DNA of 64,000 nt from Candidatus Aminicenantes bacterium (GTDB lineage Bacteria > Acidobacteriota > Aminicenantia > Aminicenantales > Aminicenantaceae). Below the pieces are notes generated by a model that saw nothing but the letters and a program-made list of their open reading frames with translations, was not told the origin of the DNA and searched no databases. A program made the position numbers and the translations under genes. Where the stretch lies: positions 26,364 through 90,363 of the forward strand of contig JAGGYH010000025.1 in the NCBI GenBank assembly GCA_021162615.1, in the 5' to 3' direction. How positions within the stretch are numbered: position 1 is the stretch's first letter; every line of letters begins with the position of its first letter. Below, piece by piece: positions 8,855 through 57,252 of the stretch.

Positions 8855-8871
8855 AATCTTCTATGCTATCT

Positions 8872-11800
8872 CTATTTTTCTTCAGGAACTATGACCCCCG
8901 ATAATCCCTTCTCTTCTAAGAATAAATTAAATAAAAGCAGATCATCAGTAAGTATCTTTTTGAAAAGTTGTTTTTGCGCTTCCAGTCTTTTTTTCAGCAC
9001 AGCATGAACTTCTTTCTGCTGCTTATTCGGAGCAAAATCAACACTGCCGGCCAGATCTCCAGCTAAAACAGACAGCTTACAGTATAATTTATTGGGATAC
9101 CTGAAGGATTTTGAATCCCCCTCAGCCAATATAGGCTGGAAGAGTTCACCTTCAACCAAGCGCAATTTTTTGTCAAATTTTTCAATTTCTATGGCAATGT
9201 CCTTTTGTTTGCCTTTATTCAACATAGCCTTCAGATCATAAAGCTGCTTGCGCATCCATTCGATCTTATTTATCATTTCTGTGACAGAATCAAGGTCCTT
9301 TCGTACTTCCTTCTGCATATTCACTTGTTCTTTGATGTCCTCAATTGATCCTTCTGAATTCGGATCTTTAAGGATATTTAATTCTCGAGCAAACTCCTTT
9401 TCTCCTATAACAAGTTTAACAGAGTATTTTCCGGGAGCCGCAAGAAAACCTCTGAATCCTCCACCAGTGCCCCAGCTCAATATGGGATACCATCCCTCTT
9501 TTTCCCACAATTCAAGAAATCTTTTTTCTTCCACTACATGAGGATTTCCAGGGGGTTTTGTGCGGAGCTTTGCACTCTCGGCCGGATAGTGCCTCATATC
9601 CCACATCACTCGGTTTATCCCTGAATGATTGGTTCCGCTTATTTTATTGACTAAATCCCCTTCCCCGTCATAGATCTCTATTGTAACGCTTTGATTTTGC
9701 TTCTTCTTAAGGTAATAATCTATATAGGCACGCGGAAAGACCCGAGGGCCCCCAGCCTTACTATGGAGTCTGTAAGCTTTTCTTGGATTGAAAAAATGAA
9801 TATCGGATTCCAGCACTTCTTTATTCAACTGCTGTAAAGGAGATATATCGTCCATGATCCAGAATCCTCTCCCATATGTTGCGACCACAAGGTCATTAAA
9901 ATCTTTCTGGACGACCATATGATGGACAGGGGCATAAGGCAGATTATTCTGCAGGGACAGCCAGTTTTGACCGTTGTTAAAGGATACATAAATGGAATTT
10001 TCTGTACCCAAATAAAGCAGTCCTTTTTTCACAGGGTCCTCATTGATCCAATGAACATAACTGAAAACACTTTTTGGCAGATCCGAGCTTATTGATTTCC
10101 AAGTCTTCCCATAATCCTCTGTTACATAAACAAAAGGGTCCCGGTTGTTCATCTGGTGAAAGTCTATGGTCACATAAGCTGTTCCTGCACTGTATTTTGA
10201 AGGTTCGATATTACTTACCGTCCCCCATTCAGGTAGATCAGGTATGTTTTTTGTCACATTTATCCATGTTTTTCCGAAATCACGGGTCACATGCACGAGA
10301 CCGTCATTGCTTCCTGCCCATATGCACCCCTCTTCCACCGGAGATTCAGCAATGGCAAAAACACAGCATCCGTATTCCACAGCCAGGTTGTCTCGGGTAA
10401 GACCGCCAGACGGGCCCATTTTACTTTCATCGTTTGTGGTGAGGTCAGGGCTTATGACTTCCCAACTCTTTCCTCCGTCACTTGTCATATGCACGAACTG
10501 ACTTCCGGCGTAGACTTTGTTATGGTCATGAGGGGATATATGAATGGGAAAGGTCCAATTAAAACGGTATTTGACCGCAGCCGCATGAGCCCCATAAATG
10601 GATTCAGGCCAAACATGAACTGTGTTGATGTGGCCTGTTTTATAATTTGCTCTTTGAAGATCGGCATTATAGCTCCCCCCCCAGACTATATCGGGATCGA
10701 CTGGGTCTGGTATCACAAATCCGCATTCTCCGCCTGCTGTCGCTTCCCAGAGAGAATTATAGACTCCCCATCTGCCGAAAGAACCTGTACTAGGCCCTTT
10801 ATAGGCGCTTCCATCCTGACGCCCTCCATAAACATAATAGGGAAACTGATTGTCGACAGCAACGTGATACATCTGGCCAATGGGAAGAGTGACCCGTTTC
10901 CAGGATTTTCCTCTGTTAAGAGTGATCATCGCGCCTCCGTCATTGCTTATCATCATCCTATCTGGATTCTTAGGATCAGCCCACATATCATGACAGTCTC
11001 CTCCCCAGGGTACTGTTTCAGTGGTGTAGCCTCCGTTTAATGTTCTGCTCTGGCTGTTTGCTGCAAAATACACTTCATTCTCATCAGCAGGATTGACCAT
11101 GACCCGGGAAGCATAATGCGGTCTTTCATTTAGGAGCCTATTGTAACTTGCAATCTTCCAATGGCTGCCTCCATCATCAGATCTCCACAATACACCCCTG
11201 TTGGGATGGCCTGTTTCAATCAATGCATAGACAACATCCGAGTTGCTCTGGGCTATGGCTAACCCTACTTTCCCAATAGGAGGTTCCGGAAGCCCATTCC
11301 CTGAAAGACGATTCCAGGATCCCCCTCCATCCGTTGATTTCCAGATGCCTCCGTTTGGGCCGCCGCTTTCTCTTCCCCATGTTTTTATAACAAGAGGCCA
11401 CATACCCGCAAACAAAATTCGAGGATTATTCGGGTCCATAGCTATTTCAAAACAACCTGTGTTTTCATCCACAAAAAGGACATGTTCCCAAGTTTTTCCT
11501 CCGTCTGTTGTACGGAACACACCTCTTTCTTTCTGCGGCCCATAACAATGCCCCATAGCAGCTACGAAAACAATATCAGGGTCTCTCGCATCTATGACGA
11601 CTCTCCCTATTCTTCCGGTCTTATCAAGCCCCATATGCTTCCACGTCTTTCCCGCATCTGTAGATTTATAAACTCCGTTTCCAATAGAAATATTGCTCCG
11701 GACAAATGCTTCTCCTGTTCCTGCCCACAGCACATTCGGATCAGATGGAGCTATTGCTAACGCGCCTATTGATTGGACTTTCTGGTCATCAAAAATAGGC

Positions 11801-16626: not shown

Positions 16627-16712
16627 TGCCGGAGGGGGGAGTCGAACCCCCACTCTCTGTGAGGAGAACTGGATTTTGAGTCCAGCGCGTCTGCCAATTT
16701 CGCCACTCCGGC
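16627..16712 (-). tRNA. tRNA-Leu (anticodon CAA)
   Basis: Hand-folded cloverleaf: acceptor GCCGGAG/CTCCGGC, anticodon arm CTGGA-CTCAAAA-TCCAG, long variable arm, T arm GGGGG-TTCGACT-CCCCC. CCA is not encoded. Confidence 0.9.
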
Positions 16713-16852: not shown

Positions 16853-17010
16853 AAGTATGATTCTTTTTGGCCGGCTGGAGAGAATCCCCACCTTTTTGGT
16901 TCCCATCATCAACCCCCTTTTGCTGACATCAGCCGGCACCTTTATATTGCTTTTTTCTTTAACATCTGCTAAAAAAAACATATCCTAGTGACCGGACAAG
17001 GTTAATCTGT

Positions 17011-17031
17011 GTGATGAAGAGTTCAGGTTAA
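17011..17031 (-). repeat. Degenerate MITE terminus fragment
   Basis: GTGATGAAGAGTTCAGGTTAA resembles the TTATGAATAG(G/T)TCAGGTTAA ends of the other copies. Confidence 0.4.
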
Positions 17032-17066
17032 TACAAGGAGGTCCAACTATAAAAAGGAGGAATAAA

Positions 17067-18824
17067 TTGGGAAAAAAGATTATCTATTTTAAAAAACTTA
17101 GCTTGATATCTTTGCTTCTTCTCCTGTGTTTTGTTTCTTTCACTCATTCAGAAAACAATGAAAATCCAAAAACAGGAATCATACCTACTGACGGATGTAC
17201 TGTCATCATCGTTGGAAAGGATGCCTCAACAGACGGCTCTGTCATGAGCACACACACCTGTGACTGCGGCCTTTGTGATTGGACATGGCGGTACACCCCG
17301 GCTGCAGATTATGATGAGGGTTCAAAACGAAAAATATACCACATCAATCAGTTCAGAACCTGGGACCCGGACATAGGCCTCAAATGGGAAAAATATAAAG
17401 ATGACTTTACAGGGCTTGAAATCCCACAGGTCAGCCATACCTATTCTTATGTCAACGGTGCCTTCGGATATATGAACGACCAGCAGGTTGCCCTGGGAGA
17501 ATCAACCATCGGATGCCAGGAAAAAATGGAAAATCCCACTCCTACAGCAAAGTTTGATATCACCATGCTGACGTTACTCGCAATGGAAAGAGCCAAAACA
17601 GCGCGGGAAGCTGTAAAAATAATGGGAGAGCTGGCGGAAAAACACGGGTACGGATACACCGATACCGGCGAGATGCTGGCTCTATCTGATCCAAACGAGG
17701 TTTGGATCTTCGAGATCATGCCTGTCGGCCCCCTCTGGACTCCGGAAAGCGGAAAACCAGGAGCCGTGTGGTGCGCTCAGAGAGTCCCTGATGATCATGT
17801 AAGTGTATGTCCCAATGAATCCCGGATCGGAGAAATCGATCTTGACAATCCTGACTATTTCATGGCCTCTCCGAATGTCATCTCCTTTGCAGTGGAACAG
17901 GGCTTTTATGACCCTGAAAGCGGAGAGCCATTCAACTGGAAAAAAGCGTATTCCCCCTCTGAATACAGCGCTGAGAGCAGCAACGGCTCAAGAGCTCGTA
18001 TGTGGCGGTTTTTTGACCTGGCAGCCCCCTCAAGAAACTTCAGCCCTGATACTCCAAATATGGAATTTCCTTTCTCTGTTAAGCCTGATAAAAAACTTTC
18101 TGTGTATGATGTGATGAAGATGACCAGAGATAAATTTGAAGGCACTCCCTATTATCCTGCCAGAGGGCTTCAGGGAGGTGCTTTCAGCAATCCCAATCAC
18201 CTTCCCTATGGATTCGAACTGGAAGGCAAGAGATACAGCCTTTCACGCGTGATCAGTGTCAACCGCGCTGAATATGTGACGGTTACCCAGTGCAGAGACT
18301 GGCTTCCCAATCCAATAGGAGGACTTGTCTGGCTTGCTTTTGGTGCTCAGGACACTTCCTGCTATATGCCGTTTTACATCGGAATCAACAGGATTCCCAG
18401 GTCCTTTGAGATCGGAGATCACTGGAAATTTGATAGGGATTCCGCAAGATGGGCGTTTGACTATGTTGATTTTCACACACAGGTTGCCTATTCTCATGCC
18501 ATCAAGGATGTCAGAGAATATCAACAGAAATGGGAGAAAACCGCTGTTGACAGGACTCCCCTGATTGATGAATACGCTGAAAAGCTTTACAACAAGGATC
18601 CTTCACTGGCATCTGACTTTTTAACTGACTACTGCAACAATAATGCAAAGTTAGTTATTGATGCCTGGTGGGAGCTGGGTGATTACCTGCTGGTGCGGTT
18701 CAATCACTTGTGGAACTATGATGTCAAAGAAAGAAAAAGAAAGGCACTGGAATATCCGGATTGGTGGCTCAAACTTCTGGTTGAATACAATAAATTAAAA
18801 CCGATTGAACAGAAAAAAGATTAA
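17067..18824 (+). CDS. Exported C69-family dipeptidase (paralogue)
   Basis: TTG start with an AAAAGGAGG RBS. Signal peptide. DGCTVIIVGKDASTDGSVMSTHTCDC nucleophile block. Confidence 0.8.
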   Translation: MGKKIIYFKKLSLISLLLLLCFVSFTHSENNENPKTGIIPTDGCTVIIVGKDASTDGSVMSTHTCDCGLCDWTWRYTPAADYDEGSKRKIYHINQFRTWDPDIGLKWEKYKDDFTGLEIPQVSHTYSYVNGAFGYMNDQQVALGESTIGCQEKMENPTPTAKFDITMLTLLAMERAKTAREAVKIMGELAEKHGYGYTDTGEMLALSDPNEVWIFEIMPVGPLWTPESGKPGAVWCAQRVPDDHVSVCPNESRIGEIDLDNPDYFMASPNVISFAVEQGFYDPESGEPFNWKKAYSPSEYSAESSNGSRARMWRFFDLAAPSRNFSPDTPNMEFPFSVKPDKKLSVYDVMKMTRDKFEGTPYYPARGLQGGAFSNPNHLPYGFELEGKRYSLSRVISVNRAEYVTVTQCRDWLPNPIGGLVWLAFGAQDTSCYMPFYIGINRIPRSFEIGDHWKFDRDSARWAFDYVDFHTQVAYSHAIKDVREYQQKWEKTAVDRTPLIDEYAEKLYNKDPSLASDFLTDYCNNNAKLVIDAWWELGDYLLVRFNHLWNYDVKERKRKALEYPDWWLKLLVEYNKLKPIEQKKD

Positions 18825-18857
18825 CCTGACCTATTCATAAAAAAACAGCGATGTTCG
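18821..18857 (+). repeat. Solo MITE End-B
   Basis: TTAACCTGACCTATTCATAAAAAAACAGCGATGTTCG. The dipeptidase TAA stop (18822-18824) lies inside the TTAA terminus. Confidence 0.75.
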
Positions 18858-18864
18858 TTTTTTT

Positions 18865-23960: not shown

Positions 23961-24433
23961 ATAAAATAATCCCCTTAAAGAAGCTCAAACAAATTATTAT
24001 AAAACAAAAAAAAGAAGGAAAAACCGTTGTGCTTGCCAATGGGTGTTTTGACCTCATCCATGTGGGACATATAAGATATCTCAAGGGTGCACGTATGAGC
24101 GGAGATATTCTGGTGATAGCTCTTAACAGTGACTCATCTGTGAACCGGCTAAAAGGCCCGGGGAGGCCTATTTTAAACCAAAACCAAAGAGCTGATATAC
24201 TTTCTGGATTTGAATTTGTTGACCATATAATCATTTTTGATGAAAGCGACGTCTCCCGTATTCTACTTTCTCTCAAACCAGATATCCATGCCAAAGGATC
24301 TGACTACACAGAAGAGACGGTTCCGGAGAAGGATGTGGTGTGCAGCTACGGAGGGAAAGTGGCCATAGTAGGAGGGCCAAAAATTAAATCCACATCTGAA
24401 ATAATACTGGAAATCAATAAAAAAAACGAATGA
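23957..24433 (+). CDS. hldC: Cytidylyltransferase-fold heptose-1-phosphate adenylyltransferase-like (RfaE domain II)
   Basis: GCFDLIHVGHIRYL nucleotidyltransferase motif. TTG start overlaps the upstream TGA (TTGA); there is no in-frame ATG before the motif. Confidence 0.7.
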   Translation: MNKIIPLKKLKQIIIKQKKEGKTVVLANGCFDLIHVGHIRYLKGARMSGDILVIALNSDSSVNRLKGPGRPILNQNQRADILSGFEFVDHIIIFDESDVSRILLSLKPDIHAKGSDYTEETVPEKDVVCSYGGKVAIVGGPKIKSTSEIILEINKKNE

Positions 24434-25476
24434 AGACACCAGATAACTTCTCGGAATATAAGGATATCTTCATAATAAAGCTTTCCTCTCTGGGCGACAT
24501 AATCCACACTCTCCCTGCTTATTCAGTTTTAAGGAGCTCTTTTCCTGAAAAGAGCATATCCTGGGTCGTCGAAAAAGAAGCCGAACAGATTCTAGAGCTA
24601 GTCGAGGGACTGGACCAGATCATAACCATTGATCTCAAAAGCAAACCGTTTTACAGGCGCGTTTTCTGGTCAACACTCGCTGAAGTAAAATCAAGCATGC
24701 GGCAAAGAAAAAGCATCGCACTGGATTTTCAAGGCCTTGTCAAATCAGGATTGATATCCTTTTTATCAATGTCAGAAAAAAGGATAGGTTTTCACAGAAA
24801 AAATCTCAAAGAACCGCTTGCCTCACTCTTCTACACCCACCACCTCAAACCTGTGTCTGAAAACATGCATGTTATCCGTAAAAATTTAAAACTGCTCTCA
24901 TTGTTGGGAATTAGTGAAAAAAGATGGGACTTCCCTATTCGAATATCTCCAGGGCTTATTGAATCCACTCAGGATAAGCTTAAAAAGAATGGAATCAACA
25001 TCAGTAAAAATAGCGTTCTTTTCAATATCGGAGGTGCCTGGCAGACAAAAAGATGGTTTCCGGATAACTGGGTAAAGCTCATAAAAATGCTTGATTTTAA
25101 AAGTTTAACTCCTTTGGTTTTGTGGGGGAACGACGAGGAAAAACAGACTGCTATCAAAATCAGTGAAAAGACAGGTGTGGCGGCCGTTCCTTTTCTGACC
25201 GTTAAAGAAGTTTTCGCCCTCATCCATGAATCAGCCTTCATAGTCAGCGGCGATTCCTTTCCCCTTCATGCAGCCTCCGCTCTTTCTATCCCCGTTGTCG
25301 GCATATTCGGGCCTACAAACCCGAATCGAAATGGGCCCTTTAATAAAAAAGACAAAATCGCATTCTCCGAGCTCGGCTGCAGCTACTGTTATAAACACAC
25401 CTGTGATAAACTGGACTGCCTGAAAAGAATCAAACCATCTGAAGTCGCCCGTTTATGTAGAGAGTTGCTGGATTAA
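24430..25476 (+). CDS. Glycosyltransferase family 9 (LPS heptosyltransferase)
   Basis: GT9-like N-terminus (IIKLSSLGDIIHTLPA) and C-terminal GDSFPLHAA block. Confidence 0.8.
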   Translation: MKTPDNFSEYKDIFIIKLSSLGDIIHTLPAYSVLRSSFPEKSISWVVEKEAEQILELVEGLDQIITIDLKSKPFYRRVFWSTLAEVKSSMRQRKSIALDFQGLVKSGLISFLSMSEKRIGFHRKNLKEPLASLFYTHHLKPVSENMHVIRKNLKLLSLLGISEKRWDFPIRISPGLIESTQDKLKKNGINISKNSVLFNIGGAWQTKRWFPDNWVKLIKMLDFKSLTPLVLWGNDEEKQTAIKISEKTGVAAVPFLTVKEVFALIHESAFIVSGDSFPLHAASALSIPVVGIFGPTNPNRNGPFNKKDKIAFSELGCSYCYKHTCDKLDCLKRIKPSEVARLCRELLD

Positions 25477-26025
25477 ATGAAAAGAACAAAACTAAAAAAT
25501 ACAATTTACAGATGGAGGGTCCGCATAGGGTCATTAGCTGCTGCAGCTGCTGTTATACTGGCCAGGCCTTCTTTTAGGTCTGTGATTATAGGATTTATTA
25601 TCTCCACAATTGGTCTGTTGTTAAGAACATGGGCGTGCGGACATATCCAAAAAGAAACAAAATTATCCATGTCCGGCCCCTACAGATACACAAGGAATCC
25701 CCTTTATTTTGGTAACCTTATTATAGGAACAGGTGTCACAACAGGAGCTCATTCCTGGTGGGTCTTCGGTATTTTTTGTCTTTACTTTTTTATATTTTAC
25801 CCTGTCATCATAGGTTTTGAAAAACAAAAAATGGAACGCCTTTTTCCCTCTCAATACCAGACATTCAAAAAAGTTCCTCTGTTTATCCCCGCACTCAGAC
25901 CGCGAATTTCTTATAAAAAAGAGGCTTTCAAATGGTCTCTATATTTAGCCAACAAAGAATACAGAGCTTTTGTTGGAGTGATGATTTTTTGGGCTTCTCT
26001 GATAATCAAGACCATCATAACCTGA
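25477..26025 (+). CDS. Membrane methyltransferase, ICMT/PEMT-like family
   Basis: Polytopic protein with the YRYTRNPLYFGNL motif. Confidence 0.65.
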   Translation: MKRTKLKNTIYRWRVRIGSLAAAAAVILARPSFRSVIIGFIISTIGLLLRTWACGHIQKETKLSMSGPYRYTRNPLYFGNLIIGTGVTTGAHSWWVFGIFCLYFFIFYPVIIGFEKQKMERLFPSQYQTFKKVPLFIPALRPRISYKKEAFKWSLYLANKEYRAFVGVMIFWASLIIKTIIT

Positions 26026-26026
26026 C

Positions 26027-26623
26027 ATGCCGACTAAAAAGAGAAAAAAAAGAGTCAGGGACGTTCTGTGCTTTCGTCAGCCTGACCTCAGAGTCGTGCT
26101 TGAAGATATTACCAACACCCATAATGCCAGTGCTGTTGTAAGGACATGTGATGCTGCGGGAATTCTCTATATCGATATTATTCATTCAAGACCTGAGCCG
26201 TTCCTGATTAATGAATCAATATCTACAAGGGCGGAAAAATGGATCAAATTCAGCCATTACTCTTCCACTAAGGAGTGTTTCAGCTCCTTAAAACAACAAG
26301 GATTTAAAATTGCCTGCACACACATCAGCTCTGAAGCCGCGGATTATACTTCCATAGACTACACACAACCCATAGCGGTTGTGTTTGGAAATGAACTGGA
26401 GGGAGTAACAGAAGAAGCCGTGCATCTTTCTGATCATCTCATCCAAATCCCTATGTTTGGTATGGTACAAAGCCTCAATTTATCAGTATCTGCCGGAATC
26501 ATACTTTATGAAGCGTGCCGGCAGAGAGTTCAAAAAGGATTGTATGAAAAAACCCGCCTTTCTGAAAAAAAATTTAATGAGATTCAAAAAGAATGGCTGG
26601 GATTAGAAAAAAACCAAAAATGA
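26027..26623 (+). CDS. SpoU/TrmH-family RNA 2'-O-methyltransferase
   Basis: SPOUT blocks NTHNASAVVRTCDAAG, FGNELEGV, IPMFGMVQSLNLSVS. Confidence 0.8.
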   Translation: MPTKKRKKRVRDVLCFRQPDLRVVLEDITNTHNASAVVRTCDAAGILYIDIIHSRPEPFLINESISTRAEKWIKFSHYSSTKECFSSLKQQGFKIACTHISSEAADYTSIDYTQPIAVVFGNELEGVTEEAVHLSDHLIQIPMFGMVQSLNLSVSAGIILYEACRQRVQKGLYEKTRLSEKKFNEIQKEWLGLEKNQK

Positions 26624-26626
26624 AGT

Positions 26627-26667
26627 AAAAAAAAGGAGGCAGGAAGTTTTATCCGCTTCCTGCCTCC
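26627..26667 (-). terminator. Rho-independent terminator of the sigma/anti-sigma/HtrA operon
   Basis: 12-bp stem GGAGGCAGGAAG/CTTCCTGCCTCC, followed on the minus strand by T8 (26627-26634). Confidence 0.75.
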
Positions 26668-26718
26668 CGGAAAATTGGAGCACAAAAGCAAGCCTAGACT
26701 TTTATGCACCGATACTGT

Positions 26719-28200
26719 TCAATTCTCTTCAAAAAGGCGTTTCCATGATGCCCGCTTCCGAAGATCTGACAAAAAAGGAAAATCTTTTTCTTCCCGCTCT
26801 ACGATAACCTCGATATGGACCACTTTGGTATTCCGGAGGACTTCTAGGCTGACCTTTTCCTCTTCTTCTTTTCTCTGGATGATCCCTTCCAGCTCTTTCG
26901 TTTTTTCTATTCTCCTTCCGTCAGCCTTTATTATGACATCCCCCACTTTCAATCCTGCTTTCTCTGCAGGCCCGTCTTTGACGATTTTTGTGACCAGCAA
27001 ACCCGTTCCCCTGTTCACTCCAAAGTATTCAGAAAGGTCCCTGTTTATCTCTTCAAGATAAACACCGATATGATTTCTTCCTTTTTCAACGAGTGAAAAG
27101 TACCAACCTTCGGGTTTGGTAATTTTTTCCAGCCTGAATTTATCGGGAGAAAAGAGAAGAGGATATTTTTCCTTGAATTCTGCCATTATGTTTTTTTCTG
27201 AGTACTCGCCCAACTCGACCTTAATGTTTTTTGTCTTATCGTCTCTTTTAATCACTATTTTCAGTTTATCACCAGGCCTGTGCATTCTGATATCATAAGC
27301 GAGCATACTGGAGCTGGTGACTTTTTCTCCGTCAAACTCAACGATAATGTCTCCTTTCCTTATTCCTGCTTTCTCCGCAGGGCTGTCTGTATCCACATCA
27401 TAGACCTCTATTTCTTCGTCACGGTTTTCGATTATGGATACCCCAAGCCACCCCCTCTGGACTTTCCCTTTTTCTTTGATCTCTGTAGCCACTTTTCTCA
27501 CAACATCAATCGGAATAGCCACGGCCAGCCCGGAGACAGGCGTTCCAACAATGCTTAACGAGAGACTTCCTCCGACTATATGACTCCTGGGATCATTATC
27601 CCCTAAAACATCCCACGTTGTTTGACCTGAGTAAACGCCTCTGATTAAACCAACCATCCTGCCTTTCTCATTCACTACAGGACTTCCGCTCGAACCAGGC
27701 ATCAAACACACATTTAAACGGATTTTATCCCGACTTATGGAACTCACTATACCGCTTGTCACAGCCGTAGAATCTTCAGGAGATATTGATATAACTCCGA
27801 TCCACGAGCCGGTGTCAACTTCCTCTTTTTCTCCCCATTCAATTGACTCCCATTTCCCGCCTTCAGCTTTAACCAGAGCAATGTGAGTGACAGGATCCAT
27901 CCCAACAAGCTCTGCATCGAACTTCTCCCCGCTGGAATTTTTCACAAAAATATTTGTTCCGATAGGAGAAACCAATGCGGTCGTGACAATATATCCGTCT
28001 TTCCCTATGACCACACCGGTTGCCACTTTTCTCATCCCGTTTACAGCTTCCACTCGAACAACTGAAGGAGCAGCTTTTTGAATTATTTGTTTGACATCTA
28101 TATCGCCATCCAGGCCATATCCGGTTGCACTGCATGTAAGAAATACGGAAACCGCCGCTATAAAAACCATTGTCAGCATTTTTCTTATATTGTTGTTCAT
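26719..28200 (-). CDS. HtrA/DegP-like serine protease with two PDZ domains
   Basis: Signal peptide. Trypsin-like GSSGSPVV active-site serine block. Two PDZ-like segments (PAEKAGIRKGDII, PAEKAGLKVGDVI). Confidence 0.85.
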   Translation of the reverse strand: MNNNIRKMLTMVFIAAVSVFLTCSATGYGLDGDIDVKQIIQKAAPSVVRVEAVNGMRKVATGVVIGKDGYIVTTALVSPIGTNIFVKNSSGEKFDAELVGMDPVTHIALVKAEGGKWESIEWGEKEEVDTGSWIGVISISPEDSTAVTSGIVSSISRDKIRLNVCLMPGSSGSPVVNEKGRMVGLIRGVYSGQTTWDVLGDNDPRSHIVGGSLSLSIVGTPVSGLAVAIPIDVVRKVATEIKEKGKVQRGWLGVSIIENRDEEIEVYDVDTDSPAEKAGIRKGDIIVEFDGEKVTSSSMLAYDIRMHRPGDKLKIVIKRDDKTKNIKVELGEYSEKNIMAEFKEKYPLLFSPDKFRLEKITKPEGWYFSLVEKGRNHIGVYLEEINRDLSEYFGVNRGTGLLVTKIVKDGPAEKAGLKVGDVIIKADGRRIEKTKELEGIIQRKEEEEKVSLEVLRNTKVVHIEVIVEREEKDFPFLSDLRKRASWKRLFEEN

Positions 28201-28214
28201 TTTAAACAGACCTC

Positions 28215-28616
28215 CTAAAATTTGGTTCTAGCATCGGTGCTTTCTGAGACCTGCTCTAGTATATATACAGTTACAGGCTGGCTTGTTTGCTTTCCTATTT
28301 CCCTTGAATAATCAACAGCTTCGGTAATGGGGATTCTGTTTTCATGACCAATTCTGAAATAATTCTCCATGGCTTGAACTCTTTCTGTATCCTTTTCCGC
28401 AAATTCCTGTATACTCTTGCCTCCGCTAAAGAAAAAGATGCTGTAAACCAAAAGCAATACCCCTAAGGTACCTACGGCTCCTGCCAATGAAAGACTGAGA
28501 ATGCGGCCCTTTTGCTTTTTCTTTTTTCTCTGAATCAAAAGATTCATGACTCCTTTTTCGAAATATTCCGGAGCCTCCACTCTTTCATATTTTTTCAAAA
28601 TATCAAGCTCTCTCAT
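28215..28616 (-). CDS. Putative single-pass anti-sigma factor
   Basis: Overlaps the stop of the ECF sigma gene. One central TM helix. No recognisable domain. Confidence 0.5.
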   Translation of the reverse strand: MRELDILKKYERVEAPEYFEKGVMNLLIQRKKKKQKGRILSLSLAGAVGTLGVLLLVYSIFFFSGGKSIQEFAEKDTERVQAMENYFRIGHENRIPITEAVDYSREIGKQTSQPVTVYILEQVSESTDARTKF

Positions 28617-29205
28617 TTTCGAACTCCTGAGCTTCTGGTTTAAAATTTATATTAAAATCATCCTTTCTGATTTCCTGTTTAAGGTATTGTCTTCCCCTGC
28701 TTATCTGCGCTTTTATGGTTCCAACCGGTTTTTTGAGCATATCGGCAATTTCCTCTTGTGAGAAACCTTCTATATCTTTGAGCACAAGCGGAATTCTGTA
28801 GCGCCGATGCAGATTGTTGAGCGCCTTTCTGATCTTTTTTACTGTTTCTTTCATTTCAAAGTCATCCGTTTCTGACAGTCCCTGCTGGTTGTTGTTGTAT
28901 ACATTCTCTAAAGGAATACTCCTTTGTTTATTCATCTTCTTTAACTCTGTTTTTGCCAAATTCGATGCAATTGTAAAAAGCCACGAAGAAAAAGGAGCCT
29001 TTGGTCTGTATTTTTTTGCCTTATAATAAACCCTTATGAATGTTTCTTGAGATAATTCCACGGCTTTTTCATAATCCCCGGTCATATTATAGAGAAAATT
29101 AACAATTTTATTTTTGTATTTGTGCATGATTTCTTCAAAAGCATCCTCATCGCCTTTTTGTACTAAAAGTATTAAATTTTTATCGTTCATTCTCTCATCA
29201 TCCAT
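28603..29205 (-). CDS. ECF (group 4) sigma-70 factor
   Basis: Region 2 (FEEIMHKYKNKIVNFLYNMTGDYEKAVELSQETFIRVY) and region 4 (SQEEIADMLKKPVGTIKAQISRGR). Confidence 0.85.
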   Translation of the reverse strand: MDDERMNDKNLILLVQKGDEDAFEEIMHKYKNKIVNFLYNMTGDYEKAVELSQETFIRVYYKAKKYRPKAPFSSWLFTIASNLAKTELKKMNKQRSIPLENVYNNNQQGLSETDDFEMKETVKKIRKALNNLHRRYRIPLVLKDIEGFSQEEIADMLKKPVGTIKAQISRGRQYLKQEIRKDDFNINFKPEAQEFENERA

Positions 29206-29400
29206 AACTTGTTTGCATCGAGAAAAGTTGCATTAAAAACAATCAAACTCCACATATTTCATACACTTATTATGAAAACATTTACTGCTTTTTGCAAATC
29301 CCTTCATGCTAGGAACCGCGCCCGTTCGCCTCCGGATTACTTCAGAACCAGCCAGCCTGTTTGAAAGTCTAAGTTCTGCATGATATTACTTATCTAACAG

Positions 29401-29579
29401 GAATAGCTTAGTCCTTATGAAAATCAGGTGTGGCCGTGGCGACATTGAAGATTTAGCCTTCGGATGCAGGAAGTCGATCCTGGTCACCCACGGACGGGGG
29501 GAGTTGCGCAGAAGCCGAGAATACAGCACGTAGAATGGCGTTAAAAATCTTTAGTGAGCGCAGGCCATATCTGATTTTC
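29401..29579 (+). repeat. MITE-like repeat, hairpin-core copy without recognisable termini
   Basis: Aligns with 34092-34289. Arms at 29419-29435 and 29563-29579 are complementary. The 3' end abuts the stop codon at 29583-29585. Confidence 0.8.
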
Positions 29580-29582
29580 TTA

Positions 29583-30110
29583 TCAGCATTTCTTCTCCTC
29601 GAGCTCCATAATGGGATTGTCAGAATCAACAAGGTCGCCTTCAGATGCAAATATTTTCTTTACAACTCCCTGCAAAGAGGACTTGATCTCATTCTCCATT
29701 TTCATTGCTTCCACAATAGCCAGTGTCTGGCCAACTCTCACTTCCTGCTTTTCTGAAACTTCAATTTTTATAACCTTACCGGGCATAGTGGATTTGATTT
29801 TCAACATATCTTCTCTTGATCTCTCTTCGCCGCCCTGTACTTCGCTCTCATCCTGGTCCGAGTCTTTGATGAAATATTGATCTCCCCTGCACTGTACGAA
29901 AAATCCGTCGTCACTCCGTGCAATAAACACTCTATAGACCTTGTCCTCTATCTTTAGGGAAACAATATGGGGAGATAAGTTTTTGATGTCCGCTGTGTAT
30001 TGGTCATCATCAACACCGACAACATACTGTTCACCTTTTTTCTCAAGAAATATTTTCAACAGCTTATTATCGACAACGAATTCATGTTCCACTTTCTTCA
30101 CTCCTCCCAA
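29583..30110 (-). CDS. BT-domain + biotin carboxyl carrier (BCCP) subunit of an acyl-CoA carboxylase
   Basis: Biotinylation motif EAMKMEN near the C-terminus. The start is uncertain: TTG 30110, GTG 30101 or GTG 30092, with GGGAGGAG at 30101-30108. Confidence 0.75.
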   Translation of the reverse strand: MGGVKKVEHEFVVDNKLLKIFLEKKGEQYVVGVDDDQYTADIKNLSPHIVSLKIEDKVYRVFIARSDDGFFVQCRGDQYFIKDSDQDESEVQGGEERSREDMLKIKSTMPGKVIKIEVSEKQEVRVGQTLAIVEAMKMENEIKSSLQGVVKKIFASEGDLVDSDNPIMELEEKKC

Positions 30111-32408: not shown

Positions 32409-34016
32409 TTACATCCTGAAAATTCCCACTTTATAGTCAGGAATCATCTGATTCAGGCTCATGGAAATACCAAGAGCCAGGGCTTCTCTGGTATCCAGAG
32501 GCTCTATGATCCCATCATCCCATAACCGCGCCGTGCTGAAATAAGGGCTTCCTTCGTACTCATATTTCTTAAGAATGGGCTGCATGATCTTATTCCTTTC
32601 CTCTTCGGTCATCTTATTGCCGGTTTTTTCAAAGTGCTTCTCCTTCACTGTGAGAAGAACATTGGCCGCCTGTTCCCCCCCCATGACACTGATTCTGGCA
32701 TTCGGCCACATCCATAAAATACGGGGCCCGTAAGCCCTTCCGCACATGGCATAATTTCCCGCACCATAGGAGCCGCCTATTATTACTGTAAATTTAGGCA
32801 CATCAGCATTGGCAACCGCATGAACCATCTTGGCTCCGTCTTTGGCAATCCCGCCGTGTTCGTACTGTTTTCCGACAATAAATCCTGTGATGTTCTGAAG
32901 GAAAATCAGAGGAATCTTTCTCATTGCGCACAAGGTTATGAAATGAGCCCCCTTCAGAGAGCTTTCAGAAAAAAGGACTCCGTTATTAGCAACGATCCCT
33001 ACCGGATAACCCATGATCCTCGCAAAACCGCAGACAAGGGTTATCCCGTATTTTTCTTTAAACTCTTGAAACCGGCTCCCATCGACTATCCTGGCAATGA
33101 CCTCTCTTGTATCAAAAGGTTTTCTTAAGTCCCTTGGAACGATCCCCAATAGTTCATTAGGGTCATAATAGGGTTCTTCAGGTTCTTTGCGGTCAAGACT
33201 GAATTTTCTTGAAGGTTCAAGCGTCTCAACAATATTTCTGGCAATCTTTAATGCGTGCTCGTCATCCTGGGCAAAATAATCAGATACTCCTGAAATCCGG
33301 CAGTGCACATCAGCCCCTCCAAGCTCTTCATCAGTCACCTCTTCTCCGGTGGCTGCCTTGACCAGAGGCGGCCCGCCTATAAAAATGGTCCCCTGTTCCT
33401 TAACGATCACCGTCTCATCGCTCATGGCCGGCACGTAAGCTCCCCCCGCGGTACAGGAGCCCATTACTATTGAGATCTGGGGGATTCCCATTGCAGAAAG
33501 ACGAGCCTGATTATAAAAAATACGGCCAAAGTGCTCCTTATCCGGAAAAGTCCCTGCCTGATGAGGAAGGAATATCCCGCCGGAATCGACCAAATAAATA
33601 CAGGGAAGACGGTTTTCCATGGCTACTTCCTGGGCTCTTATATGCTTTTTTATAGTCATAGGGAAATAGGTACCGCCTTTTACGGTCGCATCATTAGCGA
33701 TTACAAGCACTTCCCGGCCATGGATCACTCCTACTCCGGTCACCATGCTGGCCCCAGGGGCCTGGTCATCATACATTCCATAAGCAGCCATGGGACTTAA
33801 TTCCAAAAAAGGACTATTGCGGTCAAAAAGTCTTTCAAGGCGCTCCCTTGCTAATAATTTACCTCGAGATTTATGAATCTTTCTGTATTTCTCGGGGCCT
33901 CCTTTTTTAATGCGGGCGAGATTATTTCTGTACTCATCAACCTGTTTTTTCATATATTCTAAGTTTTTTATGTACTCAGGACTTTTTGTGTCTATTTTGC
34001 TTTTGATTCTAAACAT
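32409..34016 (-). CDS. Acyl-CoA carboxylase carboxyltransferase (methylcrotonyl-CoA carboxylase beta-like)
   Basis: [39 protein letters not shown] and [11 protein letters not shown] blocks as in the MCC/GCC beta subunit. Confidence 0.85.
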
Positions 34017-34060
34017 ACCCTCTTCCCCTTGTGTATCGAATTATAAAAGACACGGCTTTT

Positions 34061-34446
34061 TTAACCTGGATTATTCACAAGCCGAGGTTGCTTAAACTTA
34101 CTGAAATTCAGGTGTGGCCGTAGCGACATTGAAGATTTAGCCTTCGGATGAGGCTTTTCGAGGGCATCCGGCGAAGCCGGACGCTGAGTATGTCTGACCC
34201 ACGGACTGGGGGAGTTACGCAAGCGCCGAGAAAAATGAAGGAGAATGGCGTTAAAAATCTGAAGGGAGCACAGACCATATCTGAATTTCATATCGGCTTG
34301 CATTAATTGTAAAAAAATAGCGATTAAAATGAAAGTAAAAACAAACAAAAACATTTCAATTGTCATTTTTATGAAAAGCATGTATATCCTTGATATCAAA
34401 ACAAAAAAATGATCATCGCCATTTTTTTATGAATAGGTCAGGATAA
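34061..34446 (+). mobile_element. Full-length copy of the MITE-like repeat (End-A, hairpin core, AT-rich spacer, End-B)
   Basis: TTAACCTGGATTATTCA at the left end versus TGAATAGGTCAGGATAA at the right (imperfect TIR). Core arms at 34103-34119 and 34273-34289. No credible ORF. Confidence 0.8.
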
Positions 34447-34465
34447 ACGCTTTGTTAAATCCTTC

Positions 34466-34861
34466 CTATGAATCAGGAACAAACTTATATCCATAACACA
34501 GTATACCTGAATGTCCTTTTTTAAAAAGCTTTCTGAACTCAATCTTGACTCTTTTTCCCAGCTTCAGGTCCTCAAAATCACAATCAACAATCTGACCCAT
34601 AAGTTTGACTCCGTCATCCAGCTCTATAACTCCGACTGCATAGGGAGCCTGATCCTTGAACTGGCTGGGGGGGACTCTGATAATGGTATAGCTTATGACC
34701 TTTCCTTTCTCCGCAATCTTTGTTTTCACTAAATCGCGAGAGCCGCATTCCGGGCAGATAAGCCTCGGTGGAAAAAATTTCTGTTTGCACTTCGTACAAC
34801 TGTTGGCTTCCAGTCTATACCTTTGAGGTATCTCTCTCCAATATCTTGATGGTGTTGACAT
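34466..34861 (-). CDS. DUF35 OB-fold/zinc-ribbon protein (thiolase-HMGCS scaffold type)
   Basis: Zn ribbon CTKCKQKFFPPRLICPECGS followed by an OB-fold-sized C-terminus. Confidence 0.8.
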   Translation of the reverse strand: MSTPSRYWREIPQRYRLEANSCTKCKQKFFPPRLICPECGSRDLVKTKIAEKGKVISYTIIRVPPSQFKDQAPYAVGVIELDDGVKLMGQIVDCDFEDLKLGKRVKIEFRKLFKKGHSGILCYGYKFVPDS

Positions 34862-37350: not shown

Positions 37351-37920
37351 GTGACAATAAAAAAAATAATAAGAGAATGCAGGAAAGGAAACCAGAGGTC
37401 ATGGAAAATGCTCATTGACACCTACTCAAAAAAAATATTCAATCTCGCTTATCAATTTACAGGCTCATACGAAACTTCCGAGGACCTTACGCAGGAAATA
37501 TTTATTAAAGTCTACAATTCTCTTCATAAATATGACTGTTCCAGGAATTTTAATTCCTGGATTGCTACTTTATCACGCAACTACCTGATAGACCACTACA
37601 GAAAAACAAAACTGGAAAAGAAAAAGCGAACTGATTTCAACGAACACATACTCGATTCAGAAAGCAAGACAGATCCTGAAGAAAACATTATTAAAAAACA
37701 GAATCAAAAAATAATCTGGGAAGGAATCAGGTCATTAAACCCTGATGTGAGAATGGCTGTTATTCTCAGAGATATTCAAGGGAAAAAATATGAGGATATC
37801 GCAGAAATAATGTCCTCTCCCCTGGGAACCGTGAAATCAAGAGTCAACCGCGGCCGCATCAAACTGGCCAAAATATTAAAGAAGGAAAAGGAGAATAAAA
37901 ATGAAATGCCGGCAAATTGA
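37351..37920 (+). CDS. ECF (group 4) sigma-70 factor
   Basis: GTG start. Region 2 (WKMLIDTYSKKIFNLAYQFTGSYETSEDLTQEIFIKVY) and region 4 (YEDIAEIMSSPLGTVKSRVNRGR). Confidence 0.85.
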   Translation: MTIKKIIRECRKGNQRSWKMLIDTYSKKIFNLAYQFTGSYETSEDLTQEIFIKVYNSLHKYDCSRNFNSWIATLSRNYLIDHYRKTKLEKKKRTDFNEHILDSESKTDPEENIIKKQNQKIIWEGIRSLNPDVRMAVILRDIQGKKYEDIAEIMSSPLGTVKSRVNRGRIKLAKILKKEKENKNEMPAN

Positions 37921-38392
37921 AAAATTTCTTTCTCCTTATTTAGAAAACGAATTGAATCAGGAAGAAAAAGCTCTTGTTGAGAACCATATAGAAAAATGCC
38001 CCAAATGCTCTGGCCTTCTTTCATACATGAGAGAAGCAAAGGATTCCATGGCTAAAATTCCGGAAATAGATGTAAGCCCATCCCTTATGAAAAGACTGTA
38101 TAAAATTCCGAATAAAAAACCCAAGAGAAGCTTTCGTTTTCTTCTCAAGCCCTCTCTTCAACCCATACTTGCTGCTGCAACGGTCCTTATCACAGTCATA
38201 TCGCTCTATTCACTGAATCCTGATAGAGAGCAAATAAACAAATTCATCAATCAGAAAATTCATATTGGTTACAGTAAAGCAGAAAGATTATACGCCAGAG
38301 CAGAATCTTTGACCAACACTCTGGCCGGATATAAAGAAAACATTCTTTTTTCCATAAAAAACATTGACTTTTTTTGGGAGAAAAATGACTGA
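37901..38392 (+). CDS. Anti-sigma factor with zf-HC2 motif
   Basis: HIEKCPKCS (H-x3-C-x2-C) near the N-terminus and one TM helix. Overlaps the sigma gene stop. Confidence 0.75.
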   Translation: MKCRQIEKFLSPYLENELNQEEKALVENHIEKCPKCSGLLSYMREAKDSMAKIPEIDVSPSLMKRLYKIPNKKPKRSFRFLLKPSLQPILAAATVLITVISLYSLNPDREQINKFINQKIHIGYSKAERLYARAESLTNTLAGYKENILFSIKNIDFFWEKND

Positions 38393-42275: not shown

Positions 42276-42348
42276 AGCGGACAACGGGATTTGAACCCGC
42301 GACCCCGAGCTTGGGAAGCTCGTGCTCTACCTGCTGAGCTATGTCCGC
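42276..42348 (-). tRNA. tRNA-Gly (anticodon CCC)
   Basis: Hand-folded 73-nt cloverleaf: acceptor GCGGACA/TGTCCGC, anticodon arm CGAGC-TTCCCAA-GCTCG, T arm GCGGG-TTCAAAT-CCCGT. Confidence 0.9.
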
Positions 42349-42441
42349 TTTTTTATAGATTATACTTTTTTACGGTAAAAAATTAAACCCGTTTTAAAAA
42401 AAAGCAAACAGGAGCACAAGCCATACCTGAATGAAATCCTA

Positions 42442-49402: not shown

Positions 49403-49477
49403 TTAACCTGGATGATGAATAAAAAAATAAACATCGCCGTTTTTTTATGAATAGTTCAGGTTAATAGTTCAGGTTAA
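49403..49477 (+). repeat. Minimal MITE copy (End-A fused to End-B) with 13-bp tandem terminal duplication
   Basis: TTAACCTGGATGATGAA...CATCGCCGTTTTTTTATGAATAGTTCAGGTTAA (49403-49464). TAGTTCAGGTTAA is repeated at 49465-49477. Confidence 0.8.
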
Positions 49478-55706: not shown

Positions 55707-57170
55707 ATGCTGCATAAAGAAATATTAGAAGGTCTGACATTCGATGACGTGCTGATAATGCCTGCAAAGTCAAATATTCTTCCGGCTGAGGTTGATGTAA
55801 CAACGAAACTGAGCCGTAATATTGGTTTATCCATGCCCATAATCAGCTCTGCAATGGATATGGTAACGGAATCCAAGATGGCTATTGCCCTGGCCCAAAA
55901 CGGCGGGATAGGGATCATCCACAAAAATATGCCCATTGATAAACAGGCCGAAGAGGTGGATAAAGTAAAGCGTCATGAAAGCGGAATGATTGTAAACCCA
56001 ATAACCATGAAGCCTCAGGATAAGATATATGAAGCTAAAGAAGTCATGAAAAAATATCAAATCTCCGGGCTTCCCATAACAGATGAGAACAATAAATTAT
56101 TGGGCATCCTTACAAACCGGGATATCCGGTTTGAAACACGCCTCAATCTTGCCATAGAAAAAATAATGACCAGAGAACTGATCACGGTTCCGCTTGGAAC
56201 CTCTATCGAAGAGGCGAAAAGGCTTTTTCATAAACATAAAATCGAAAAAATCCTCATGGTTGATGAGAAATTCCATTTGAAAGGATTGATAACGTATAAA
56301 GATATCCTTAAGCGGATTAAATATCCTCATGCATGCAAGGATAAACTCGGACAGCTTAGAGTAGGAGCAGCCATTGGAATTGCTGAAAACACCATAGAAA
56401 GAGCCGCTGAACTCACCCATGCAAAAAGTGATGTGCTCGTGGTTGACACAGCGCACGGGCATTCACAGAAAGTCCTGGACACGATCAAAATATTAAGAAA
56501 TAAGTTTCCGGATGTAGAGCTTATTGCCGGCAATATAGCAACGGCAGAAGCTGCCAAAGATCTCATAAAACTCGATGTAGATGCCGTGAAAGTCGGAGTC
56601 GGTCCCGGATCTATCTGTACGACTCGAATCATATCCGGCGCCGGTGTCCCGCAAATAACAGCTGTTGCCAATGTTTATCAAGTCACAGAAGCGCATGACA
56701 TTCCTCTCATAGCAGATGGAGGAATTAAATTTTCCGGCGACATCACAAAAGCCATAGTTGCCGGAGCTGATTCAGTCATGATAGGCAATCTCTTAGCTGG
56801 AACTGATGAATCCCCGGGAGAAGTTGTCATTTATCAGGGACGCTCTTATAAAATTTACAGAGGCATGGGATCTCTGGAAGCCATGCGTGAAGGAAGGACC
56901 GGTGATAGGTATTTTCAAGACGCAACTAATAGAGCAAAATTAGTACCTGAAGGCATAGAAGGCCGTGTCCCTAATAAAGGCAGTGTTACTCACATAATAC
57001 AGATGATGGTGGGCGGCCTTAAGGCAGGAATGGGCTATGCTGGCTGCTCTAGCATAAAGGACCTGCAGAAAAAAGCAAAATTTATCAAGATCACATCCGC
57101 AGGAATCAGGGAAAGTCATGTCCACGATGTTATCATTACCAAAGAAGCACCTAACTACCACCTCGACTGA
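55707..57170 (+). CDS. guaB: IMP dehydrogenase
   Basis: LTFDDVL N-terminus, a CBS pair insert, the catalytic [11 protein letters not shown] loop, and [17 protein letters not shown]. Confidence 0.95.
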
Positions 57171-57252
57171 TCCTGGTTATTCATAAAATGTGAAAATCAG
57201 ATATGGAAGGCTAAATCTTCAAAATCGCCACGTCCACACCTGAATTTCAGAA
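57171..57252 (-). repeat. MITE copy with short hairpin (End-B-like + fused arms) between convergent guaB and panD
   Basis: The reverse strand reads CTGAAATTCAGGTGTGGACGTGGCGATTTTGAAGATTTAGCCTTCCATATCTGATTTTC followed by TTTATGAATAACCAGGA. The panD stop (57247-57249) lies inside the arm. Confidence 0.75.

Follow-up and report, generated by a model that had tools for sequence, protein, structure and literature searches.

The 386-bp element at positions 34061-34446 of a 64,000-nt stretch of contig JAGGYH010000025.1 from Candidatus Aminicenantes bacterium (assembly GCA_021162615.1; the whole stretch is hereafter called the window) is a chimera of two repeat families, in which a miniature transposable element with inverted repeats (MITE), inserted at a TA dinucleotide, encloses a core that belongs to a separate, more widespread family and very probably represents a selected RNA fold. 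The element sits between two minus-strand genes of a cluster of thiolase/HMG-CoA-synthase-like plus methylcrotonyl-CoA-carboxylase type, and a protein identical in sequence (100%) to the carboxyltransferase of the window is named from a Ca. Aminicenantes metagenome-assembled genome (MAG). An initial annotation of the window had taken this copy to be the master copy of a dispersed MITE-like family with terminal inverted repeats (TIRs) and without a transposase. The dispersed family is borne out; the master copy is not, since the core is a structured-RNA-like module in its own right and not MITE-internal sequence. The full explanation, in which a TA-inserting MITE carries a structured-RNA cargo that spreads partly by means of such MITEs, is judged to be probable. 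Throughout, L numbers (L004, L027, L123 and so on) are labels of comparison loci.

The insertion itself is evident from the comparison of filled and empty sites. A filled gap of 448 nt is carried by five independent assemblies of the window's own population, whereas in those relatives whose carboxyltransferase is 92-93% identical the two genes lie only 66-68 nt apart. These empty sites (L115, L116, L118-120) contain one TA, 18 nt after the stop codon of the ChsH2-like gene; on the operon strand they read stop-18 nt-TA-TTGAGG..., i.e. ...GG-TA-TTGAGG, where the window reads stop-20 nt-...GTT-TA-[TCCTGACC...CCAGGT]-TA-AAAAAG. The element proper is therefore 34064-34443 (380 bp), flanked by the left and right TA copies of the target-site duplication at 34062-34063 and 34444-34445. 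Two further pairs are of the same kind, in that a core-less member of 258 bp occupies L123:18462-18723 but is missing from both L121 and the window (CATT-TA-ATCC), and L123:1625-1870 is filled where L121 is empty and reads AAA-TA-AAAT; both L123 insertions are TA-flanked, with a single TA at the matching empty sites. A TA duplication had been predicted in the initial annotation, and these three comparisons bear it out. Moreover, seven other full composites occur in unrelated contexts (L004, L081, L021, L023, L070, L018, L102; 76-91% identity to the window copy), with TA at both ends in all six that have both ends inside the locus, L081 being cut at its left end. The element therefore shows what the definition of bacterial MITEs used here asks for (PMC3184786), namely TIRs, TA duplication with a single-TA empty site, small size, no transposase inside and dispersed copies polymorphic for presence or absence; its TA target and TA duplication are also those of IS630/Tc1-mariner-derived elements. 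It can be stated with high confidence that a single non-autonomous DNA transposon, a MITE, inserted here as 34064-34443 and duplicated TA.

Reading of the sequence confirms the layout that had been given for the 386 bp, i.e. End-A, a core with pairing arms, an AT-rich spacer and End-B. End-A (TTAACCTGGATTATTCACAAGCCGAGGTT, 34061-34089) comprises the left TIR ACCTGGATTATTCAC and a subterminal block AAGCCGAGGTTGC (34064-34091, + strand); it recurs at 7253-7283 (-), 8708-8740 and 49403-49420, and is also what composite and core-less MITEs of other genomes have at their left end. The core (34098-34292, +) is followed by a linker ATCGGCTTGC...AAAAAAATAGCGAT (34293-34330, +), which is the conserved MITE block after the cargo slot and is common to core-less MITEs, these reading ...GAGATCGGCTCGCC...AAAAAAATGGCGAT across it. 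The end of the linker is the left arm of a second hairpin, the loop of which is the AT-rich spacer (34331-34410, +; GC 0.21-0.25 vs 0.51-0.62 in the core), also kept in the composites L004, L021 and L039. End-B (34411-34443, +) is made up of ATCGCCATTTTTTT, i.e. the right hairpin arm and a T-run, and the right TIR ATGAATAGGTCAGGA; the stretch 34411-34446 reads ...CATCGCCATTTTTTTATGAATAGGTCAGGATAA, and End-B is the right end of MITEs elsewhere. The TIRs are imperfect and ~14 nt long (left ACCTGGATTATTCA, right TGAATAGGTCAGGA, where ACCTGGATTATTCA(C) pairs with the reverse complement of TGAATAGGTCAGGA), and the same TIR ends are found on composites and core-less copies in several genomes. The order of modules is left end, cargo slot, block ATCGGCTCGCC, second hairpin (AAAAAAATGGCGAT / ATCGCCATTTTTTT) and right end.

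The independence of the core from these ends is apparent from several observations. When the core and its flanks are aligned from 47 loci, conservation ends with the outer helix, beyond which the flanking sequences belong to several classes that are unrelated to one another. Among 89 complete cores, 54 (61%) have no TIR within 250-300 nt, and only 11 have a TIR on both sides. Ordinary MITEs of the family carry a different hairpin of ~80-95 nt in the cargo slot (window 7166-7283; L123:18462-18723), lying between ...GAGGTTGC and ATCGGCTCGCC..., and it is this slot that the core occupies in the window copy. Nesting also takes place in reverse, with MITEs interrupting cores in L008, L009, L013, L025, L041, L045 and L063. 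In other words, the independent core, the different usual cargo hairpin and the reverse nesting together make the 386-bp copy a chimera of two repeat families and not a progenitor.

The distribution of the core was assessed by scanning a 23-nt degenerate core pattern over one genome per GTDB species, giving at least 104 stretches in at least 25 species-level assemblies, all of them Aminicenantes/Acidobacteriota MAGs, although some are mislabelled 'Eubacteriales'. Metagenome loci were chosen by the core 3' motif alone, and of the 120 stretches returned the first 100 were run with a covariance model of the core. There are 87 covariance-model hits in 100 genome loci and 81 in the 100 metagenome loci, the latter including a ~189-nt subclass with a divergent 5' motif. 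As lower bounds, copies per genome range from 1-2 exact-motif matches (complete 4.43-Mb CP070825.1) to at least 20 (sister species CAZUXT01). The family thus extends well beyond the window, into related genomes and metagenome contigs, and a local duplication, the alternative that the initial annotation had itself named, fails as an explanation. A scan of IMG/VR viral contigs with two core motifs yielded 0 hits, and BLASTN of the 386 bp found no match in PLSDB plasmids or INPHARED phages. An exact-sequence look-up for identical copies of the open reading frame (ORF) that lies antisense to the element (34061-34399, -) found none on record, a homolog (P0157) on 7 contigs representing one locus in 7 samples, and no identical copies at different loci were found.

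The structure of the core, derived from RNAalifold, mutual information and inspection, consists of five helical parts. P1 is a closing helix of ~19 bp (34101-34119/34273-34291), in which the complementary outer arms remarked upon in the initial annotation prove to be real; P2 is an invariant 6-bp helix, AGAUUU/AAAUCU; P3 is a long-range helix, in which the segment immediately 5' of GAGGG pairs with that immediately 3' of GCCGAG, extended by CUUC/GARG; P4 is a hairpin; and P5 is a variable domain, the size of which, from a 20-nt hairpin to ~150 nt, sets the total core lengths of ~190, 250 and 320 nt. The helices are joined by ~60 junction nucleotides that are nearly invariant across lineages of 42-65% GC, and a pseudoknot of GCGACAUU with AAUGGCGU may be a further pairing. 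The minimum free energy is -72 kcal/mol on the + strand (z -3.85) and -58 on the - strand, and the covariance model scores the window core at 209 bits on + vs 14.6 bits on -.

Covariation indicates that this fold is maintained. In an unbiased MAFFT alignment of 46 copies, 87.7% of cells are paired vs 40-52% when the partners are slid by 1-3 columns, and 31 pairs change on both sides vs 10-20 when slid; in the model-fitted alignment of the 87 hits, the corresponding figures are 90.0% vs 38-51%, with 666 cells changing on both sides vs ~110. None of 500 shuffles reaches the observed values in either alignment. All 19 P1 pairs and all six P4 pairs covary in the model-fitted alignment. The sequence of P1 varies freely with its pairing kept. 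Particularly revealing are a GC-rich lineage with a wholly different P1 (GCGGCGTTCGGGTCCGGCT / AGCCGGACCCGGCGCCGC) and the wholesale swapping of P3 between subfamilies (GTGCTGTGTTT/GAACACAGTGC, ATCCGCTTTT/AAGAGCGGAT, ACTGTCCTTT/GAAGGGCAGT, GAGTTT/AAACTC). G-U/U-G cells number 355 against 109 for A-C/C-A in the model-fitted alignment, from which the + strand is taken to be the folded strand. Compensatory changes above controls and strand specificity are the general marks of a conserved structured RNA and both are seen here; the core is very probably a selected single-strand (RNA) fold. It corresponds to no known family: at the gathering threshold Rfam 15 finds two tRNAs and nothing else in the window, a permissive scan (E<=10) of 33950-34550 gives no match within the core, and 13 loci with diverse core variants give no hits. 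A match to an Rfam family or to an insertion sequence (IS) end, which had been raised as the other way in which the initial reading could fall, is not seen in these Rfam scans.

The obvious rival to such a fold is that the core is simply the ordinary interior of a plain MITE with inner inverted repeats, its structure being a by-product of palindromic DNA that forms a cruciform or single-strand hairpin serving transposition or replication. The ~20-bp complementary ends of the core, the resemblance of its P1 ends (CCTGAATTTCA) to the MITE inverted repeat CCTGGATTATTCA, the occurrence of cores between MITE ends in at least 11 loci and the many copies that decay like junk would all sit comfortably with this. 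It nevertheless appears quite unlikely, because a transposase-binding site should be conserved in sequence and P1 conserves pairing alone, because internal helices that are not palindromic (long-range P3, P4, P5a) covary, and because the ~60 junction nucleotides hold across the full GC range; the G-U over A-C strand bias and the majority of cores that lack MITE ends point in the same direction.

What the core RNA does is a matter of more tentative argument. The MITE inserted into a TA ~20 nt downstream of the ChsH2-like gene, duplicating the TA, and in this copy the usual hairpin of the cargo slot is replaced by the ~190-nt module of the separate family. The core would be transcribed as a small, stable, structured RNA with an activity independent of the neighbouring genes, acting in trans or as a component of a ribonucleoprotein, or else serving its own propagation; it would multiply partly by capture in TA-specific MITEs and partly by another route, with most copies dispensable and decaying by deletion and further MITE insertion. 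A context-independent small RNA of this trans-acting or self-serving kind is a possibility to be entertained, at somewhat less than even weight. A bolder version, which seems rather unlikely, would make the core a new functional RNA class, be it a ribozyme or an RNA directing its own mobilisation or subject to it (SINE-like, i.e. in the manner of short interspersed elements, or otherwise RNA-dependent). Such an RNA might have colonised the Aminicenantes without depending on a protein gene nearby, exchanging nesting with the TA-specific MITE, and its invariant junctions might form an active site or the recognition surface for a trans-acting enzyme.

Closely related to this last idea is the rival that the core is a self-cleaving or otherwise catalytic RNA, or a SINE-like RNA copied back into DNA, with the junctions as its catalytic or recognition core. 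Invariant junction nucleotides together with tolerant peripheral helices and a domain of variable size are as expected for it, as are the high copy number without a nearby protein, and the cargo that is met with in both orientations, within MITE ends as well as at one and the same site of sister genomes. It is held to be improbable in that no known ribozyme family matches in the Rfam scans, that the core ends show neither a retro-insertion signature (poly-A, target-primed or other) nor a target duplication, and that 1.6 Mb of loci, which were not exhaustively annotated, showed no reverse-transcriptase gene. A hammerhead ribozyme, suggested by CUGAUGAG in one subfamily, was considered and rejected, the motif not being conserved.

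The genomic context of the core bears on whether it could instead act in cis. ORFs were clustered around core copies in 104 genome loci and 65 metagenome copies, and within ~3-4 kb of 89 genome-locus and 65 metagenome cores there is no protein that recurs; the only large cluster is the artefact ORF antisense to the core, the others being housekeeping paralogs (TPR, ABC-F, FtsX-type permeases, TonB-type receptors, sigma-54 regulators, AlaRS). The low-copy large variants likewise have no synteny in common, and a link to ECF sigma factors was rejected since the sigma gene beside the 29414 copy is not a recurrent neighbour in other loci. A riboswitch, attenuator, mRNA stabiliser or terminator acting on the adjacent gene, as REP, ERIC and Correia repeats can be, would be in keeping with the many copies that lie 0-40 nt from a stop codon and would be co-transcribed as 3' untranslated region, with the T-run that directly follows P1 in some copies, and with the hairpin and T7 of End-B. 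However, the orientation of the core relative to its upstream and downstream genes is even (same/same 10, opposite/opposite 14, same/opposite 17, opposite/same 13), three of the four window copies are antisense to the flanking operon, the neighbours share no functional theme and the fold is far more elaborate than a stabiliser hairpin requires, such that a cis-acting role is very unlikely. A CsrA sponge, prompted by several GGA motifs, was also rejected, the ACGGAC hairpin being replaced in the large variants.

HEARO RNAs had a multi-copy, intergenic, structured profile before IscB was understood, and the core might by the same token be the guide-RNA scaffold (omega-RNA/HEARO-like or bridge-RNA-like) of a transposon-encoded protein, with its copies as protein-less derivatives served in trans. 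It too is multi-copy, intergenic and highly structured, with variable flanks, and is entangled with mobile DNA. Against this, the ~3-4 kb around each of the 89 and 65 copies contain neither a gene of the TnpB, IscB, IS110 or reverse-transcriptase kind nor another gene that recurs, there is no match to the Rfam HEARO or IS605-related families, and the variable parts are paired helices and not unpaired loops capable of guiding; the proposal is accordingly regarded as highly improbable. Finally, a small protein encoded on the - strand across the element is contradicted and may be set aside, for although the ORF at 34061-34399 (-) is present, is reported by gene callers as a 'hypothetical protein' of 74-180 aa and has 64 homologous clusters in the protein collection (the named ones from Ca. 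Aminicenantes), none of these has a Pfam domain, the homologs differ in length and in the portion of the ORF covered, 1-nt indels between subfamilies shift the frame with base pairing kept and no ORF conserved, and the frame runs through the MITE end and AT-rich spacer. The annotated antisense proteins are likely to be spurious genes. A small ORF or type I toxin (ATG-TCT-GAC-CCA...) was rejected as well, its frame being broken by 1-nt length differences between subfamilies and by stops in the large variants.

Returning to the preferred explanation, a TA-specific MITE with a structured-RNA cargo, a number of points weigh against it. Some concern the fold, in that the pair counts and the G-U/A-C count from the model-fitted alignment lean towards the model, and G-T wobble forms in single-stranded DNA too, so that the strand bias is compatible with a hairpin at the DNA level. 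Others concern expression: a + strand scan finds no consensus sigma-70 promoter or intrinsic terminator flanking the two window cores, and a promoter-like block upstream or a T-run after P1 is present in some subfamilies or copies only, one subfamily having a TTGTAA-N17-TGgTAAAAG block upstream of the core. As to mobility, no target duplication is visible around stand-alone cores, and a search of ~1.6 Mb of related loci for end pairs 600-2500 bp apart revealed no autonomous element with the same TIRs. That copies decay rapidly, and differently from lineage to lineage, speaks against a host function for each individual copy. Lastly, all comparison genomes are MAGs, and repeats break or chimerise such assemblies, L107 and L110 being examples. 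These two loci have the window's 100%-identical carboxyltransferase, with a UvrA-like gene in one and a Na/Pi cotransporter in the other upstream of the element in place of the ChsH2-like gene; the switch suggests either an assembly chimera or a real rearrangement at the repeat.

With regard to the source of mobility, the window was said in the initial annotation to be free of transposases, and Pfam indeed finds none among 46 ORFs scanned, which comprise, apart from six (24430-28616), every long ORF that does not lie within a longer one; six of the 46 have no Pfam hit, and the syntenic counterparts in relatives of the six remaining ORFs hit non-transposase families or none. Since the element contains no transposase, its movement was presumably in trans. 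What lies between the inverted ends that are 600-2500 bp apart are genes for TruA, SmpB, an epimerase, a BamD-like protein, GspE/F, peptidase S9 and an amidohydrolase, not transposases, and with no partner found, trans-mobilisation is inferred from the class of element. The IS630/Tc1-mariner family and its MITEs (e.g. RUP) have a TA target, TA duplication and short TIRs, and elements of the IS5/IS427 group can also give 2-4-bp TA-containing duplications. By analogy of target, duplication and short TIRs, a transposase of IS630/Tc1-mariner type would most likely be the one that moves the element in trans, although no IS630-like transposase or full-length element with these repeats was found in the loci examined.

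The copies have turned over site by site. In a sister genome of ~90% nucleotide identity, syntenic with the window over three blocks, the PanD/IMPDH gap holds a full-length core (L027:7793-7987, 220 bits) where the window retains the arms only (57189-57253); the same gap is empty (59 nt) in a relative with an 84% identical PanD, and filled in either orientation in closer relatives. At the tRNA site, the window and the sister genome keep different wrecks. The sigma-factor/BCCP gap is occupied in four genomes (window, L067, L121, L123), with differing deletions, insertions and orientation, and this shared occupancy of the 29414 site indicates an old insertion that is decaying differently in each lineage. 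A core together with an upstream 'U' module is found in opposite orientations between the same flanking genes of sister genomes at two loci (window 29299-29587 vs L067:3892-4300; L244:2360-2580 vs L245:2370-2810). Simple inversion between the P1 arms fails to account for this, as the U module travels along with the core; inversion between inverted repeats or repeated insertion into a hot spot may be responsible. The overall picture from such turnover is that individual copies are dispensable and old.

The resemblance to Correia- and ERIC-type elements that had been proposed is apt as far as mechanism goes, these and the IS630-derived MITEs being the nearest known counterparts in that respect (PMC3184786). 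Correia elements duplicate TA on insertion. In Neisseria these elements (CREE/NEMIS) are small and non-autonomous, with TIRs, many intergenic copies near genes, nested length variants and no transposase identified in the element (PMC3184786). All of these features recur in the Aminicenantes element, but the likeness is in mechanism only: Correia elements are ~100-157 bp long with one simple hairpin, whereas the Aminicenantes element is modular, spans 118-386 bp and occurs in another phylum, and its window copy, unlike Correia, carries a multi-helix module with its own evolutionary history. ERIC/IRU elements of the Enterobacteriaceae have longer variants that arise by internal insertions and are often co-transcribed and folded in RNA (PMC3184786); here also the likeness is one of mechanism, since ERIC consists of one imperfect palindrome of 127 bp, in which the internal insertions do not represent structured modules conserved in their own right, and similarity in sequence would not be expected. 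The BIMEs, or REP mosaics, of E. coli are like the Aminicenantes repeats in mixing short modules in varied order and orientation at gene ends, and in being gained and lost between relatives, but REPs are moved by RAYT (Y1) transposases, without TA duplication, such TIRs or a large conserved multi-helix module. The core itself may be compared with HEARO/omega-RNA and with those orphan structured RNAs, present in multiple copies, that comparative genomics has brought to light, such as the Acido-1 and Acido-Lenti-1 motifs (PMC2864571). Like the core, these are lineage-restricted, multi-copy, intergenic, 100-300 nt long, strongly covarying and at first without a known function, some being tied to mobile DNA; the core matches none of the HEARO, Acido-1 or Acido-Lenti-1 Rfam models and, unlike HEARO, no copy examined is accompanied by an ORF.

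The literature searched contained nothing on repeats or non-coding RNAs of this lineage and, as far as that literature shows, the MITE, ordinary in itself, is the first to be characterised in this uncultivated lineage. What is new is the structured cargo and the mutual nesting of two repeat families. The passenger is unusual, being a large, covarying, multi-helix RNA-like module that Rfam lacks and that annotations wrongly list as 'hypothetical protein'. Orphan RNAs of such a profile have repeatedly proved to be biologically significant, HEARO having become the IscB guide RNA, and a defined covariance model and alignment now make the question testable in metatranscriptomes and in vitro. In practical terms, the repeats not only disrupt MAG assemblies but also supply neighbouring genes with stop codons and create spurious ORFs.

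Within the window, the copies and fragments listed in the initial annotation exist beyond chance, BLASTN of the 386-bp element recovering all but one of them with E values of 1e-29 to 4e-5. The exception, the 'degenerate end' at 17011-31, is visible by eye and has no significance on its own; it is part of a weak, End-A/End-B-like palindrome GTTAATCTGTGTGATGAAGAGTTCAGGTTAAT (17003-17033). The matches are to the core at 29414-29587 (73% identity, E 1e-29), to End-A and the first ~85 nt of the core at 8708-8827 (E 7e-21), to the core arms at 57206-57250 (-, E 1e-12), to End-B at 49418-49464 and 62481-62537 (E 4e-11 each), 18821-18864 (-, E 1e-10) and 7166-7198 (-, E 5e-10), and to End-A at 7253-7283 (-, E 4e-5). 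A 33-nt End-B pattern with <=3 mismatches has 5 window matches vs 0.00 expected, and an 18-nt End-A pattern with <=2 mismatches 5 vs 0.02. By the covariance model, cores score 209 bits at 34098-34292, 110 at 29414-29582, 27 at 57189-57253 (-) and 20 at 8746-8959.

The deletion series that had been drawn through these copies stands in part, since some fragments are true derivatives (57189-57253, with its full-length ortholog) and others are core-less MITEs or solo ends. The second core (29414-29582, +) has a ~27-nt internal deletion that removes part of P3 and all of P4, and is preceded by a remnant of the U module and a conserved upstream block (29299-29413, +), as in one subfamily; U module and core match at 73-78% in L019, L021, L046, L061, L067, L072, L082 and L098. 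At 8708-8827 (+), End-A and the first ~85 nt of a truncated core are fused to a terminator-like hairpin, and at 57169-57253 (-) a mini-core, i.e. the P1 arms and 5' motif with the interior deleted, is followed by an End-B-type inverted repeat (TTTTATGAATAACCAGGATCA). The core-less MITE at 7166-7283 (-) is 118 bp long and consists of End-A, a short internal block, ATCGGCTTGCC and End-B. At 49403-49477 (+), End-A is fused to End-B with the last 13 nt duplicated, and the sister genome L027 retains only TTAACCTGG at this site. Solo copies of End-B lie at 18821-18864 (-), between convergent genes, and at 62481-62537 (+). A remnant of the core 3' arm (GGAGCACAAGCCATACCTGAAT, 42411-42432, +), absent from the earlier list, has a BLASTN E of 0.24 on its own; its orthologous site, L063:736-1104, holds End-A, the 5' arm, a MITE and the 3' arm.

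A number of smaller observations accompany these features. The repeats supply the stops of their neighbours, in that a 273-aa ORF (7280-8101, -) and a peptidase C69 gene (17067-18824, +) both end in the TAA of a TTAACC terminus; the stops inside repeats are at 7280-7282, 18822-18824 and 57247-57249. PanD (57247-57606, -), which has its stop inside the P1 arm of the mini-core, is 119 aa long vs 118 in most homologs. The two tRNA genes are at 16627-16712 (-) and 42276-42348 (-), the second immediately next to the core remnant (42411-42432); a MITE insertion site in L123/L121 likewise has a tRNA next to it. The catabolic operon is flanked by two ECF sigma-factor genes, the first (28603-29205, -) divergent beside the 29414 core and the second (37351-38392, +) followed by a zf-HC2 anti-sigma gene.

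As for the core and MITE sequences themselves, the invariant core 3' motif (GAAUGGCG, 34255-34262) is complementary to the End-B block CGCCATT (34414-34421) and identical to the left arm of the second MITE hairpin (AAATGGCGAT); being 7 nt long only, the match may be chance or may be a trace of common origin. The full U module is a palindrome of ~190 nt (CTTTCAGGCAGGCTGGCTGGTTCTGAAG ... CTGAAGAACCAGCTTGCCTGATGAAAG; L067:4100-4290, L245:2640-2770), of which the window (29299-29400) keeps the right half only, and part of it resembles the expanded P5 domain of 266-nt RNA variants (L003, L006). On CAZDJZ010000016.1, four GC-rich (0.60-0.65) cores lie within ~11 kb (L075:2510-7854, L071:4705-4899), the three of L075 each being antisense in a gap between minus-strand genes, and all are surrounded by REP-like units (CCTCAGGATGACA; GGATCTTA..TAAGATCC). 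A-rich repeats of the GTGAAAGGTGAAATG type form palindromes at gene ends and beside cores (L123:14437-14600; L246:2355-2400; upstream of the cores of L009 and L013), and another palindromic element (AAAATGGGGACAGGCCCCATTTT ... AAAATGGGGCCTGTCCCCATTTT) is inserted in the P4/P5 region of two cores (L069:6060-6150, L096:3560-3700).

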